A stretch of DNA of 6,104 nt, taken from Promethearchaeia archaeon. Its GTDB lineage: Archaea > Asgardarchaeota > Lokiarchaeia > Sigyniarchaeales > SOKP01. This document shows positions 831 through 6,104 of this stretch, in pieces. The DNA lies in NCBI GenBank assembly GCA_046497275.1, contig JAWOFX010000123.1, positions 1 through 6,104 on the forward strand. Direction: 5' to 3'. How positions within the stretch are numbered: position 1 is the stretch's first letter; every line of letters starts with the position of its first letter. A program made the translations under genes and the position numbers. Below the pieces are notes generated by a model. It was not told the origin of the DNA. It worked only from the letters and a program-made list of their open reading frames with translations, and made no database searches.

Positions 831-1259
831 TTACTCTATTGCATCTTCAAAGGCTTCCATAGCTAACTCAATAATTTCTTGGAAAGCCATGGCATCTTGA
901 AGGTTTCCTTCTACGGTGATATCACCTGCCATGTATGCGCTGGTCGCATCTACTTCTCCATACAACATCCCAGCCCCTACTTCGCTTGTTGCAGAAAAGG
1001 TAAATGAAGGATCATCGATTTCTCCCTCACCATATTCCAGAGTTCCTTCCTTGGCTTTCACCCAAAATTTCTTATCAATATCCGTGAGGATCATTTGGAC
1101 AGCAATATCCATATCTTCTAATTCTTCTTTAAGATCCTCACTTTCTTCAGCTAATTGTTTATATAACTCATACACTTTCAATGCATCATCAGGGTCAGCA
1201 TTCGCTGCGCCCGCTTCGAATTTTTCTTTCATTTCATTTAATAATGCTTGATCAACCAT
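831..1259 (-). CDS. SCP2 sterol/lipid-binding domain protein, paralog B (142 aa, very acidic)
   Basis: It shows the SCP2-family pattern: beta strands (FWVKAKEGTLEYGEG..P.FTFSAT) and the C-terminal AYMAGDITVEGNL (A(F/Y)MxGxlxxxGdl-type) motif. I moved the start from the track's GTG (1268) to ATG 1259. Paralog A begins at the equivalent MVD, and that GTG forms part of an SD-like AAGGTG 6 nt upstream of the ATG. Confidence 0.92.
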   Translation of the reverse strand: MVDQALLNEMKEKFEAGAANADPDDALKVYELYKQLAEESEDLKEELEDMDIAVQMILTDIDKKFWVKAKEGTLEYGEGEIDDPSFTFSATSEVGAGMLYGEVDATSAYMAGDITVEGNLQDAMAFQEIIELAMEAFEDAIE

Positions 1260-1296
1260 ATTTAACACCTTGATTAACTAGTATTGCTAATTAAAA

Positions 1297-1480: not shown

Positions 1481-2020
1481 CTATATGGTCAAAACAAGAA
1501 AGAATGGATAAATAATAGAAAATATTATTGCAACCAAAATTATTTTCCACATATGAAATTCACTTTTAATGATATCATTCATTTTTTGTCTTTTATACTC
1601 GCCCTCAAATTCTTGTGTGGTAGGTCGCCAATGATACCCATCTATATCCTTCATTACAAAACCTCTACGTAAAAATTCTGTTTTCATCTTTTGGGTGACC
1701 ACCATTGTAGCAAAACTTGTTTTGCCTTCAGTTAATATATAAAGATAGAACAAATCCAAAAAAAATAAAATGATGCTGTATGGTTCAATGATGATACTAA
1801 TAAAAAAGTTAGAAATCGCAAGACTAAGGAGAAATATATAATAATAGGGATTTTTTTTGATATAAAAGTATATCAATAAACCAAGAGGGATAAAAAATGA
1901 AATTATTTGAATGATAGAAACTAATGAAAAAGCAATTTCAAAAAGATATATAAATATAAAGGAAGTACAATGAAAAAAAGTCAATAATAAGGTCAAAAAA
2001 TTAAATATTTTATTAGTCAA
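1481..2020 (-). CDS. Hypothetical integral membrane protein (179 aa, about 5 TM helices)
   Basis: TTG start with an SD-like AAAGGT 8 nt upstream, and a TAG stop. Four hydrophobic segments lie in aa ~5-97, then a charged ~60-aa loop (..LRRGFVMKDIDGYHWRPTTQEFEGEYKRQK..), then a C-terminal hydrophobic helix. I recognise no family. The start codon is uncertain. Confidence 0.72.
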   Translation of the reverse strand: MTNKIFNFLTLLLTFFHCTSFIFIYLFEIAFSLVSIIQIISFFIPLGLLIYFYIKKNPYYYIFLLSLAISNFFISIIIEPYSIILFFLDLFYLYILTEGKTSFATMVVTQKMKTEFLRRGFVMKDIDGYHWRPTTQEFEGEYKRQKMNDIIKSEFHMWKIILVAIIFSIIYPFFLVLTI

Positions 2021-2348: not shown

Positions 2349-3596
2349 ATGTCTTCTACAAAAGAACTAAGTCATTGGCGTTTCTGGCCTGTGTTTATTT
2401 TAGCATTTTTTTATCCCATGAATAATGGAATGATTAATCTCTTAGTTCCAATCTATTATCTGCAAGAAGGTTTATATGAGGGGGCAATTGGTGTGCTTTC
2501 TGCGGGAACTACCATAGCATATGTATTTTCTCCATTATTACTTAATAAAGTCTCTCAAAAGATTAAAAGAAAGACCAGTATTATAATCTCATTAACAGGA
2601 GTGTTTCTCTCTGAAATTATCTTTTATTTTACCTTAAATCCCATATTATTTATAATTTCCAGGACAGTAGAAGGTATTTTCATGGGATTATATTGGCCAA
2701 ATCTGCAATCTTCGATTTCTGATAATATTTTTCATGAGCATCGGAAATTAACTGCTAAATATAATATCTCATGGAATTTAGGAATATTAGGGGGGTTTTT
2801 ACTGGGCGCTTTGTTGCTATTCATATTTGAATTACTAGAAATTATATTTTATATTGCTCCGATTTTAATATTTATCAATTTAATCATCGCAATAGGCGCG
2901 TTTCAAGAACCAAAAAAGATAAATATTCATTCTAAAGAATTTAAAGAATATATAAAAAAAAAGAAACTCAATCTTGTAAAAGCAGTAAAAATTAAAGAGG
3001 AAAAGGATGATTTTACTAAAATATCTTTTCCATTAATATTTCCCGTTCTTTTAGTAATCGGATATTGTCTACCTCGGGCAGCGATAAATTTTTTATATCC
3101 CCTTAAATCTGAATTACTCAATTTTGAACCATATACTGTATATATTGCGATTTTTTTCTTAGCACTTTCCCAAATGATTTCAATGATTTTCGCTAGTTTA
3201 ATGAAATTGAGAAGGTTTAATAAAATTCCCCCTATTATGATTGGTATTTTGGTGCTGATCTTTCCGATAATCGCATTAAATCAAGAGTTTCTTATATTTA
3301 TTATACTTTTTCTTATAATCGGTTCTTGCACTGGTATTTTGTATGGTGTTTCATTACGTTTATTTTTAATTTTAAATATGAAAGAAAACAAATCTATATA
3401 TTCAGCATTTTTAGAGAGTATTCTTGGTCTTGTATTTCTGATCACCCCGATTCTTTCAGGCGTTATTGCTGCAATTGATTTGAATATCACCTTTTACTTA
3501 TTGACTTCAATACTAGTTATTCTATTTTTTGTTTTGCTGATTCTTAGCATTAAAAAAGTGAATTTTGAAGTAAATGAAAAAGAAAACGTAGAATAA
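2349..3596 (+). CDS. MFS transporter (12-TM, DHA1-like), substrate unknown
   Basis: 415 aa with two hydrophobic halves separated by a Lys/Glu-rich central loop. It has a motif-B-like SRTVEGIFMG, a motif-C-like LGILGGFLLGAL, and a degenerate motif A (NKVSQKIKRK). Confidence 0.9.
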   Translation: MSSTKELSHWRFWPVFILAFFYPMNNGMINLLVPIYYLQEGLYEGAIGVLSAGTTIAYVFSPLLLNKVSQKIKRKTSIIISLTGVFLSEIIFYFTLNPILFIISRTVEGIFMGLYWPNLQSSISDNIFHEHRKLTAKYNISWNLGILGGFLLGALLLFIFELLEIIFYIAPILIFINLIIAIGAFQEPKKINIHSKEFKEYIKKKKLNLVKAVKIKEEKDDFTKISFPLIFPVLLVIGYCLPRAAINFLYPLKSELLNFEPYTVYIAIFFLALSQMISMIFASLMKLRRFNKIPPIMIGILVLIFPIIALNQEFLIFIILFLIIGSCTGILYGVSLRLFLILNMKENKSIYSAFLESILGLVFLITPILSGVIAAIDLNITFYLLTSILVILFFVLLILSIKKVNFEVNEKENVE

Positions 3597-3602
3597 AAGA
3601 AG

Positions 3603-3712
3603 TGGCGCCCGCGCCGGGATTTGAACCCGGGTCGCAGGAGTGACAGTCCCGAATGCTTTCGGCGAAGAATAGATGAGATCTATTCTTTTAGACCGGACTA
3701 CACTACACGGGC
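3603..3712 (-). tRNA. tRNA-Asp(GUC), CCA encoded, with a 32-nt D-loop intron
   Basis: The - strand folds fully once the intron is removed. Acceptor GCCCGTG/CGCGGGC, D-stem GTGT/GCAT, anticodon stem CGGGA/TCCTG with loop CT-GTC-AC (anticodon 3644-3642), T-arm CCGGG-TTCAAAT-CCCGG, discriminator G73, then CCA (3605-3603). The mature length of 78 nt matches archaeal tRNA-Asp with 17a/20a/20b. Confidence 0.97.
3658..3689 (-). other. tRNA-Asp intron, 32 nt, D-loop position 20b/21 (21/22 gives the same mature tRNA)
   Basis: Intron sequence AAAAGAATAGATCTCATCTATTCTTCGCCGAA. The central 4-bp helix is exon CGGU (17a-20) with intron GCCG. The bulges are CU^A and AA^A, and there is an internal perfect 10-bp hairpin AAGAATAGAT/ATCTATTCTT. 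Confidence 0.88.
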
Positions 3713-3770: not shown

Positions 3771-3949
3771 TTGGAAGTAAAGAAACTTTATAGTAACAAA
3801 AGAAATAATTAAAAATTTAAAAATTTTATTCTCGGAGATTCTAATGGAAATGCGTAAGAAAACGAAAAGTTTAAATTCATTAATTCCGCAATTCTTAATA
3901 AGAAGCCTTTGAATAGGTTTTTTAAAATTTATCTAATAATGGAATTAAT

Positions 3950-4420
3950 ATGAACAATTTCGAGAGCATTTACTCTATCCTCAAAAGTTTACTTAAAGTG
4001 GATAATGATGAATTTAAAAACCTATTAGATAAGTATTTGCAGAATGTTACGAACCTTTTTGCGAATCTCGATGAAATAAAACAAAATTTTTCCGATATGG
4101 ATGACATTTATCAATTTTACATTACTGATATAGATTTCCAATTCTGGTTTAAAATTAAAGAAGGCTCACTAAGTTACTCACAAGGACTTAATGAAAACTA
4201 TGATATAAAATTTAAGTTAACCAAGGAAGTTTTTTTAAAAATAATCACACTTCAAATTCAAACATATGATGCTTATATGAGGGGTTTAGTTAAATCAGAA
4301 GGTGAATTATCCTATGTAATACAGTTTAGAAATTTTTTTAATGAAATGACCGAATATATCTCATTCTTGTTAAAAAAACAACGAAAGAAAAAGAAATCGT
4401 CCACTTCTCATAATCAATGA
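3950..4420 (+). CDS. SCP2 sterol/lipid-binding domain protein, paralog C, with polybasic C-terminal tail (156 aa)
   Basis: It aligns without gaps to paralog B (34/142 identical by hand count). Shared blocks include D49-M50-D51, TDID, FWxKxKEGxLxYxxG and AYMxGxxxxEGxL. It has an extra tail KKQRKKKKSSTSHNQ. Confidence 0.85.
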   Translation: MNNFESIYSILKSLLKVDNDEFKNLLDKYLQNVTNLFANLDEIKQNFSDMDDIYQFYITDIDFQFWFKIKEGSLSYSQGLNENYDIKFKLTKEVFLKIITLQIQTYDAYMRGLVKSEGELSYVIQFRNFFNEMTEYISFLLKKQRKKKKSSTSHNQ

Positions 4421-4505
4421 TGATAATAAATTTTTTTAGCCATAGAGGACGATATTAATATAACTTCACATTTTATTATGAGAGAAGATCAATTTCTCTC
4501 TTTAA

Positions 4506-4600
4506 GGACCCGTAATCTAGTCTGGATAGGGTACCCGCCTTCGGAGACTTCTAAATGGAGCCGAATTGGGATGTCGCAGGTTCGAATCCTGCCGGGTCCG
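4506..4600 (+). tRNA. tRNA-Arg(UCG), no encoded CCA, with a 20-nt intron
   Basis: Acceptor GGACCCG/CGGGTCC, D-stem ATCT/GGGT, anticodon TCG at 4541-4543, variable loop ATGTC, T-arm GCAGG-TTCGAAT-CCTGC, and G73. The Arg identity elements A20 (4526) and C35 are present. Mature length is 75 nt before CCA. Confidence 0.96.
4547..4566 (+). other. tRNA-Arg intron, 20 nt, non-canonical position 39/40
   Basis: Intron sequence ACTTCTAAATGGAGCCGAAT. It forms a strict BHB: outer helix C31C32U33/G41G42G43, bulge AU^U, central helix UCGG/CCGA, bulge AG^A, inner helix CUUC/GGAG. Only this junction restores the C31-G39 pair. Confidence 0.88.
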
Positions 4601-4601
4601 C

Positions 4602-4621
4602 TTTTTAATTAATCTTCTTTT
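4602..4621 (+). terminator. T-rich terminator candidate after tRNA-Arg
   Basis: TTTTT at 4602-4606 and TCTTCTTTT at 4613-4621, immediately 3' of G73. Confidence 0.45.
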
Positions 4622-4959
4622 ATATCTCCTCGTTTAGATGAATAAAGGTTTAAGAATAATGAAAATAATGAGATTTATATGGTTTAATTTTGAAAAAATA
4701 AGAGGAAAAGGTTAACGAATTTTTTTAAAGGATTTCAATAATTAAAATCACACAAATTAGCATTTAATCGAAATAATTTGTGATATGCTGTTATATAGGA
4801 GAGATCATGAAACTCAACTTTCACGAAGATTGTTCGCATAAATTGAACTCTTTAAAAGCATTATTAATGAATTCAAATCTATTAAAGATAATAGATGTAA
4901 TTTTAAAGTTAAAACAATTCATACACAAAAAAATATAAAAATTTTAATTTGAAAAAAAT

Positions 4960-6104
4960 ATGGCATCAACTACAAAAAAACTTTCAGAAACAGAATACGT
5001 ACCTCTTAAAGAGAAATTGACTTATGCATTTGCTACAATGCCAGGAGTTTTTTATGGTTCTGTTATGGGATTAATTCAATCTTTTTATTATGCATGGATG
5101 GGGCTCCAAAATAGCTGGATTATTATCGCACAAATTGTATACGCAATATGGAACGTCGTAAACGATCCTCTCTTTGGTAATAAGATTAATAATACGAAAT
5201 TCTACAATAAACGCCGTGGAGAATATCAGCGATATATACCATATATTAAATATGGAGCTCCAATTTTCAGTTTGGCATTTGCCTTGGTCTTTTTTCCACC
5301 AGGTATATTGAAGGATAATCTAACCTTAACAGCTCAAATATGGTTATTTGTGTGGTATTTAGTAACACAAGTAGCGTATGATACTTTATTCACTATTGTA
5401 CTCTGCGCGTATGTAGCATTATTACCCCAAATGACCCTAGATCAAAAGGAAAGAGAAAAAATTCAGATTCTATGTACACTTTTTACTTTACCTGGAGCAC
5501 TTATAGGGTTTATCTTGCCTTTAGTGTTTCTCGCTAATCCTACACAAGAATCCATCACAATCTTTCAGTTTCTGGTAATTGGAATAGCAATTTTCGGGAT
5601 AATTCCGTATATCCTATTATCATATACCGTACGTGAGCATTCTGAACACATTCCACAAGAGCCCACTCCTTTAATTAAGGGTCTTAAGCTGGCTTTTAAA
5701 AATAAATCATATGTGATTTATCTAATATATGATGGGGTAAGTGTATATATACTTAATGTTGTTATATCGACACTTCCCTTCTTTCTAACATGGGTTCTAG
5801 CCCCTATGATTTCTTCACCTTTAGAAATGATTTTTTTTTGGATACCTCCAATAATATGCCTACTAATTGGTGCTTTTATACAATTAAGAATTGCGGACAG
5901 GCATTCAATAAAAAAAGCGTTAAGTTTTAATCAAGGAGTCTTAGCTTTGGGATTTATACTTAGTTTTACTCTTGCTTTTACGGGTCTATGGTATTTATTA
6001 TGCATTGGATTTTCAATAGTGTTTCTTGCGTTTGCTGGAGACTTCATTCTCCACAATCCGATGCGAGCTGATACAATTGATTATGACTTTTGGAAGATAT
6101 CAGG
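4960..6104 (+). CDS. GPH / MelB-like (MFS_2) glycoside-pentoside-hexuronide:cation symporter family transporter (3' end truncated by the window)
   Basis: Not in the ORF track. An open frame of 381 codons runs from ATG 4960 to the edge: MASTTKKLSETEYVPLKEKLTYAFATMPG... It has GPH hallmarks WNVVNDPLFG (TM2), YVALLPQMT.D..ER and ADTIDYD (TM10-11 region), plus many TM segments. A TATA-like AATATAAA at 4932-4939 suggests a leaderless start. Confidence 0.92.
   Translation, partial: MASTTKKLSETEYVPLKEKLTYAFATMPGVFYGSVMGLIQSFYYAWMGLQNSWIIIAQIVYAIWNVVNDPLFGNKINNTKFYNKRRGEYQRYIPYIKYGAPIFSLAFALVFFPPGILKDNLTLTAQIWLFVWYLVTQVAYDTLFTIVLCAYVALLPQMTLDQKEREKIQILCTLFTLPGALIGFILPLVFLANPTQESITIFQFLVIGIAIFGIIPYILLSYTVREHSEHIPQEPTPLIKGLKLAFKNKSYVIYLIYDGVSVYILNVVISTLPFFLTWVLAPMISSPLEMIFFWIPPIICLLIGAFIQLRIADRHSIKKALSFNQGVLALGFILSFTLAFTGLWYLLCIGFSIVFLAFAGDFILHNPMRADTIDYDFWKIS

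Follow-up and report, generated by a model that had tools for sequence, protein, structure and literature searches.

The locus examined here raises two linked questions: where is the intron of its tRNA-Arg(UCG) gene removed, and is that position out of the ordinary for the organism that carries it? The gene lies in a 6,104-nt stretch of DNA, referred to throughout as the window, which is contig C177 of a draft genome (G000; 3.85 Mb in 188 contigs, 98.9% complete). A preliminary description, made from the sequence alone, had placed a tRNA-Arg(UCG) gene at 4506-4600. A covariance-model search identified the gene there on the plus strand, with a score of 40.6 bits against Rfam family RF00005 (gathering score 29, E 3.6e-6). 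The match was full-length over the gene (model positions 1-71) and left a 24-nt block unaligned in the anticodon arm. The parts of the gene and its flanks, with the basis for each assignment, are listed below.

4470-4479, plus strand: candidate archaeal TATA box, A/T-rich ATTTTATTAT, about 31 nt upstream of position 1 (assigned by reading)
4506-4546, plus strand: exon 1, positions 1-39, comprising the acceptor 5' strand, D arm, CCCGC, loop CUUCGGA and G39 (RF00005 alignment, hand numbering, excision test)
4506-4512, plus strand: acceptor 5' strand GGACCCG (hand numbering)
4534-4538, plus strand: anticodon stem 5' strand CCCGC (hand numbering)
4539-4545, plus strand: anticodon loop C32-U33-U34-C35-G36-G37-A38, anticodon UCG (hand numbering)
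4547-4566, plus strand: predicted BHB-type intron, 20 nt, between positions 39 and 40 (excision test, helix frames, homologue in genome G002)
4567-4570, plus strand: UGGG, positions 40-43 (hand numbering)
4567-4600, plus strand: exon 2, positions 40-73, comprising UGGG, variable loop AUGUC, T arm GCAGG-UUCGAAU-CCUGC, acceptor 3' strand and discriminator G4600 (RF00005 alignment, ARAGORN call on the 39/40-spliced sequence)
4602-4606, plus strand: run of five T directly past the discriminator, a likely transcription stop (assigned by reading)

CCA is not encoded in the gene. Minus-strand Rfam matches to HPnc0260 and Plastid-ycf2 over 4557-4698 were set aside as artefacts, being sub-threshold and antisense to the T arm and acceptor.

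The position of the intron was examined by comparing excision products. Removal at 37/38 or at 38/39 gave one identical product, because A4545 equals A4565, and left a C31.U39 mismatch, while removal at 40/41 left G30.A40. Excision at 39/40 (intron 4547-4566) was the sole option that produced a fully paired 5-bp stem, CCCGC/GUGGG, just as the preliminary description had maintained. The resulting 75-nt product carries the arm CCCGC-CUUCGGA-GUGGG, with U33 in a 7-nt loop and a purine at position 37, and ARAGORN called the spliced sequence as a 76-nt tRNA-Arg(tcg). A search across helix frames gave the same answer. Among 16 alternative 20-nt excision frames, all four pairs of the central helix were found in the 4546/4566 frame only. 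When the intron was shuffled, only 89 of 100,000 sequences reached four central pairs together with at least three h' pairs at 39/40. Both controls speak against a chance match.

Intron-free relatives provided a further comparison. In three genomes of the same family (G123, G135 and G150), the gene has an uninterrupted anticodon arm, CCCGCCUUCGGAGUGGG, that equals the predicted 39/40 product exactly; in G017 the gene is compact and its arm nearly identical. The same-family arms read CCCGC-CUUCGGA-GUGGG, so that the aligned nucleotides are A38-G39-U40, and they agree with the mature junction UCG-G-A-G-U-GGG forecast earlier. Three independent lines, namely restoration of the stem, the 4/4 helix frame with its hairpin, and the uninterrupted arm of relatives, place the predicted intron at 4547-4566.

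It could be argued that excision takes place at 37/38 or 38/39 after all, with the mature tRNA tolerating the C31.U39 mismatch. The 37/38 site is by far the commonest in archaea, mismatches at 31-39 are generally known from some tRNAs, the intron mode of ARAGORN favours excision within the loop, and the orthologue in genome G018 has a textbook strict BHB intron at 37/38. Against this, the 37/38 (4544/4564) and 38/39 frames each allow one of the four central pairs, and the intron-free relatives carry G39 rather than U39. In addition, archaeal EndA obeys the motif and not the position (PMC4090602, PMC5829648). We regard excision at either of these sites as very improbable and retain 39/40.

The choice of site has consequences for annotation, which is mainly where this locus matters. 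In default mode, ARAGORN found no tRNA in the window. With the -i option, it found the gene but removed 4544-4563, cutting after G36, which turns position 37 into A and creates a C.U mismatch. A generic finder can thus miss the gene or splice it wrongly, so that position 37 changes and the 31-39 pair is lost. The earlier warning that pipelines will mis-splice the gene holds for ARAGORN, but it is not supported for the standard archaeal pipeline, tRNAscan-SE 2.0, whose archaeal mode is described as looking for non-canonical BHB introns by default and so does not assume 37/38 (PMC8450103).

The precursor had also been described as a strict BHB with two 3-nt bulges, in which the anticodon and G37 pair with intron CCGA as the central helix. 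Folding of the precursor gave the following elements.

4541-4544, plus strand: helix H 5' strand, U34-C35-G36-G37, pairing with 4561-4564 (pair probability 0.90-0.91; MFE folds)
4561-4564, plus strand: helix H 3' strand, intron CCGA (pair probabilities; pairing kept by CCGG in genome G002)
4545-4547, plus strand: 5' bulge A38-G39-A4547 (unpaired probability 0.92-0.94), predicted cut after G4546
4548-4560, plus strand: h' hairpin CUUC/GGAG with loop UAAAU, 4548-4551 pairing with 4557-4560 (pair probability 0.84)
4565-4567, plus strand: 3' splice-site nucleotides A-U-U (unpaired probabilities 0.18, 0.93 and 0.21), predicted cut after U4566

The pair probabilities are in keeping with the central helix as it was originally read. 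The insert therefore has the features of the BHB class, with a central 4-bp helix in which all four pairs of UCGG/CCGA form, a 3-nt bulge on the 5' side, and at least one flanking helix (h', 4 bp). In BHB geometry, each cut falls after the second nucleotide of a bulge and the two cuts are four base pairs apart. Applied here, this predicts cuts after G4546 and U4566, which is the stem-restoring excision.

The two sites differ in how they are predicted to fold. A4565-U4566-U4567 forms a 3-nt bulge in a register-shifted conformer only; otherwise U4566 alone is unpaired, opposite C31 and C32. The shifted outer helix consists of C31-G43, C32-G42 and U33.G41, at -8.7 kcal/mol compared with -12.5 kcal/mol for the MFE of the arm, and its pair probabilities of 0.004-0.006 correspond to less than 1% of the ensemble. 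The predicted precursor instead retains stem 27-30/40-43 in the cloverleaf register (0.72-0.87) and has U33 paired to A4565 (0.77), leaving the 3' site as a 2x1 internal loop of C31 and C32 against U4566. The description as a strict BHB is thus apt for the 5' bulge (unpaired at 0.92 or above) and for a structure that can be drawn, but not for the favoured fold of the 3' side. In these models, the 5' site is a clean bulge, and the 3' site is probably relaxed. Since the strict form is disfavoured, the 3' cut would depend on the enzyme's fixed geometry and its assumed tolerance of relaxed motifs.

That assumption would be unnecessary if the enzyme acted on the strict hBHBh' conformer with the outer helix shifted. 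On paper, this conformer has an h of 3 bp, an H and an h' of 4 bp each and two bulges of 3 nt. Its counterpart in G002 permits a 4-bp h, and protein binding can select a minor conformer. The shifted form is 3.8 kcal/mol less stable than the MFE, however, with no pair probability above 0.006. None of the other five 39/40 orthologues has a perfect central helix, so the enzyme of this lineage must accept relaxed motifs in any case, and its alpha subunit bears the loop that confers such tolerance (PMC3241643). Recognition of the strict conformer is possible, though we consider it on the unlikely side, and we favour a relaxed 3' site.

The host genome encodes two EndA paralogues, both of which match PF01974 and PF02778.

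Contig C46, L001:1168-1773: EndA, alpha-type, 201 aa (PF01974/PF02778)
Contig C168, L002:1216-1818: EndA, beta-type, 200 aa (PF01974/PF02778)

The 201-aa protein is closest to the alpha subunit of Aeropyrum pernix (3P1Z_B, E 3e-38). In the alignment to that subunit, it retains Tyr, His and Lys, the catalytic residues of the EndA family. The specificity loop aligns without gaps (...SPLGISKPRLEYF... in the host and ...QPLDVEKPRGADF... in A. pernix), and the conserved K-P-R holds the equivalents of A. pernix K44 and R46. In the 200-aa protein, Val replaces the catalytic His of M. jannaschii EndA in the alignment, as would be expected of a structural beta subunit. These features are those of a putative broad-specificity (alpha-beta)2 EndA with a crenarchaeal-type specificity loop. 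In A. pernix, loop residues K44 and R46 enable the enzyme to cleave introns that are relaxed or off-position (PMC3241643). A loop-bearing (alpha-beta)2 architecture would explain how the relaxed motifs of the orthologues can be processed.

Two further observations concern these proteins. The beta-type EndA is closest to the homotetrameric M. jannaschii enzyme and yet lacks the catalytic His. The alpha-type EndA is unusually conserved, at 73-88% identity across 80 Asgard MAGs, including those labelled Hod-, Hermod-, Thor- and Odinarchaeota. Relatives at this level of identity occurred only in Promethearchaeota/Promethearchaeia and other Asgard-labelled MAGs, and Promethearchaeota belongs to the Asgard kingdom Promethearchaeati, in accord with the earlier view of the host as a probable Asgard archaeon.

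We infer cleavage, ligation and the conformer bound by the enzyme, and the proposed pathway is as follows. The host EndA, as a putative (alpha-beta)2 heterotetramer, would cut after G4546. A second cut, at a distance of four base pairs and two nucleotides on the other strand, would follow U4566. The joining of G39 to U40 by a ligase of the RtcB type would then create the C31-G39 pair.

The locus is present in public sequencing runs, and DNA runs that contain 0.6-0.87 of the sequence words point to samples with this organism. Transcript data were searched for the splice joint over 3900-5300, and none was found in the contigs of three metatranscriptome sets and one DNA set; ordinary RNA-seq contigs rarely hold mature tRNA. 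The sole RNA-library contig across the gene, 151 nt long at depth 3 and spanning 4435-4585, is unspliced, and may represent pre-tRNA or carried-over DNA. Separately, record 10 of salt-lake metatranscriptome X5 is a 305-nt contig that matches window 4561-4593 (3' exon) and continues into a 3' flank of the type found in G012, a relative considered below. Its loose end beyond the 3' exon reads AGGCCCACTACTTTTTAACA.... This flank indicates that a related organism with its own 39/40-intron gene was present in the salt-lake sample.

The unspliced contig would also suit a decaying, unspliced pseudogene, with another gene supplying tRNA-Arg(UCG), and copies may be hidden in a draft assembly of 188 contigs in which about 26-30 tRNA genes are detectable and more hidden ones are likely. 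Once spliced, however, the gene has all stems intact with conserved T-loop and D-loop, and both gene and intron site are kept in G002 with changes that preserve pairing. In a crude regular-expression scan of the 98.9% complete genome, no other tRNA turned up with a UCG anticodon loop close to a T-arm; copies whose T-loop has diverged, or whose intron precedes position 37, would escape such a scan. We find a pseudogene scarcely credible. The gene seems to be the only UCG-anticodon arginine tRNA of the genome and, given the outcome of the scan, is probably essential.

The gene, its insert, a unique stem-restoring site, a motif that matches this site, the recurrence of the site in relatives and the genes for the enzyme are all observed directly. 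The best explanation of the whole is a functional tRNA-Arg(UCG) gene in an Asgard archaeon of the Loki type, interrupted by a 20-nt BHB-type intron (4547-4566) at 39/40, within the 3' strand of the anticodon stem, to which we assign a probability of roughly 85%.

Interrupted tRNA genes are not confined to this locus. In Rfam alignments, 12 other tRNA genes of the genome carry inserts, located in the anticodon loop, D-loop, variable region or T-loop, so the cell must process such introns routinely. A census combining a BHB scan with ARAGORN was too permissive, giving many alternative calls per gene, and clean cases alone were used. These lie at 37/38 in Arg-GCG, Ser-UGA and Gln-UUG, and elsewhere in Val-GAC (variable region) and Glu-CUC (D-loop). 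Double inserts were seen in three tRNA genes: D-loop and anticodon loop (C180:5672-5802), anticodon loop and T-loop (C85:8694-8819), and D-loop and variable region (C156:4271-4374).

The window itself contains a second interrupted tRNA gene, tRNA-Asp(GUC), at 3603-3712 on the minus strand. It has the acceptor GCCCGUG/CGCGGGC, the anticodon arm CGGGA-CUGUCAC-UCCUG, the T arm CCGGG-UUCAAAU-CCCGG and an encoded CCA. Its D-loop insert of about 30-34 nt contains a 10-bp hairpin and can be drawn by hand as a relaxed BHB with a putative cut near 20b/21. The gene was detected neither by Rfam at E<=1 nor by ARAGORN with or without introns; deletion of 30-35 nt from the D-loop led ARAGORN to call tRNA-Asp(gtc). 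Around the two tRNA genes, the ORFs at 831-1268 (minus), 3950-4420 (plus), 2349-3596 (plus) and 4960-6102 (plus) encode two SCP2-domain proteins and two MFS-type transporters. The 179-aa ORF at 1481-2020 (minus) had no Pfam match.

A survey of orthologous Asgard tRNA-Arg genes, proposed in the preliminary description, recovered the 39/40 site in seven genomes of five genera. The orthologous genes of one family, which show the range of arrangements given below, are L004 (G002), L005, L006, L008-L011, L013, L014, L016, L017, L019, L020, L145 and L146. When the 154 genomes of the order were scanned by pattern, inserts at 39/40 turned up in G000, G002, G012, G014, G058 and G060, and BLAST found another in G031, of a different family. 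The intron of G002, which belongs to the same genus as the host, is homologous and 19 nt long. In its helix H, the strand CCGG converts a U-A pair to U.G with pairing preserved, and in h' (CUCC/GGAG) a U.G pair has become C-G; loop and bulge letters differ. These one-sided, pair-preserving changes in H and h' are, as read from the sequences, the pattern expected of a conserved structure. G002 also has an additional D-loop intron.

The introns of G012, G014, G058, G060 and G031 are different, at 30-43 nt. In all seven genomes, the site that restores the stem and shows the best motif is 39/40, and an A-G/C-N 5' bulge is common to them. The central helix has only three of its four pairs in five of the seven, these being the five from other genera.

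Other orthologues are interrupted elsewhere. Besides the 37/38 intron of G018, introns were found at 45/46 (G021, G010, G008, G019 and others), at 29/30 (G080) and in the D-loop (G016, G007, G024 and others). Some of the genes have two introns at once, others none. Within the genus of the window, G001 and G005 have a variant gene with the stem CUCGC/GUGAG and without the 39/40 intron. The predicted intron position in tRNA-Arg(UCG) is highly fluid inside a single family, and the gene and its orthologues illustrate the free movement of intron positions within one Asgard tRNA gene family.

It is tempting to view 39/40 of tRNA-Arg(UCG) as a recurrent insertion hot-spot in this Loki-type order. The basis is its occurrence in seven genomes, five genera and two families, with introns of 19-43 nt that have no evident shared sequence, while in many close relatives the arm is uninterrupted or the intron lies at 37/38, 45/46 or in the D-loop. 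Between genera, these introns are too short and constrained to be aligned meaningfully for homology. We hold the hot-spot to be doubtful. If the gains were independent, the anticodon arm of tRNA-Arg(UCG) would attract introns, possibly by a reversed EndA/ligase reaction at a site already able to form a UCGG-centred helix. Such gains would give direct access to how archaeal tRNA genes acquire introns. Possible recurrent gain at 39/40 is the only mildly interesting point beyond known examples.

The intron had initially been presented as bearing on the origin of site selection by eukaryotic TSEN. Neither this significance nor novelty is supported. Any archaeon can be expected to have sites that follow no ruler, since archaeal EndA goes by the BHB; cutting guided by the motif is general in archaea and already documented for Asgard. 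A TSEN of the ruler type would not be expected to choose the 39/40 site. Anticodon-stem sites such as 38/39 and 39/40 may already be listed in Thermoproteales catalogues. A literature search for a prior record of the 39/40 site returned nothing relevant, slash notation not being searchable.

Non-canonical Asgard introns were published in 2018, 2024 and 2026. Kaneta et al. 2018 reported them together with an (alpha-beta)2 EndA bearing an L1/CSL loop (PMC5829648). Valentin-Alvarado et al. 2024 found 92-95% of tRNA genes interrupted in three complete Asgard genomes, often at non-canonical sites (PMC11291895). The preprint of Goswami et al. 2026 counts Asgard anticodon-stem insertions. According to it, 44 of 60 genomes have two EndA paralogues, and introns were gained and lost repeatedly at the same positions (10.64898/2026.10.13.758758). 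For Crenarchaeota, introns of the non-canonical BHB type are classical (PMC4090602, PMC3241643). A review of archaeal introns names 20/21, 22/23, 25/26, 29/30, 30/31, 45/46, 53/54, 56/57, 59/60, 'etc.', an open-ended list in which 39/40 is unnamed (PMC4090602). Off-site tRNA introns are thus well documented in Asgard, and the 39/40 intron of tRNA-Arg(UCG) is an ordinary, correctly read example.

The present case resembles the published Asgard introns in belonging to the same superphylum, in the kind of intron, which is short (about 20-30 nt), spliced by proteins and located outside 37/38, and in being accompanied by a two-paralogue EndA. It differs in coming from a Loki-type family, whereas the published studies centre on Atabeyarchaeia, Freyr-/Jordiarchaeia and a few reference MAGs. 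With Crenarchaeota and Thermoproteales, it shares an intron position set by a transplantable BHB or relaxed BHB. As in Aeropyrum pernix (Hirata et al. 2011, PMC3241643), the catalytic subunit, which is most similar to A. pernix alpha, keeps the K44/R46 equivalents. Unlike those lineages, the host belongs to a different phylum and has a mesophile-like, AT-rich genome (window 29% G+C). Compared with canonical 37/38 introns, the chemistry and motif logic are the same. Helix H, however, is shifted two nucleotides in the 3' direction, so that the anticodon and G37, rather than positions 32-35, pair with the intron. The predicted cut also falls inside the anticodon stem, and the C31-G39 pair would exist only after ligation.
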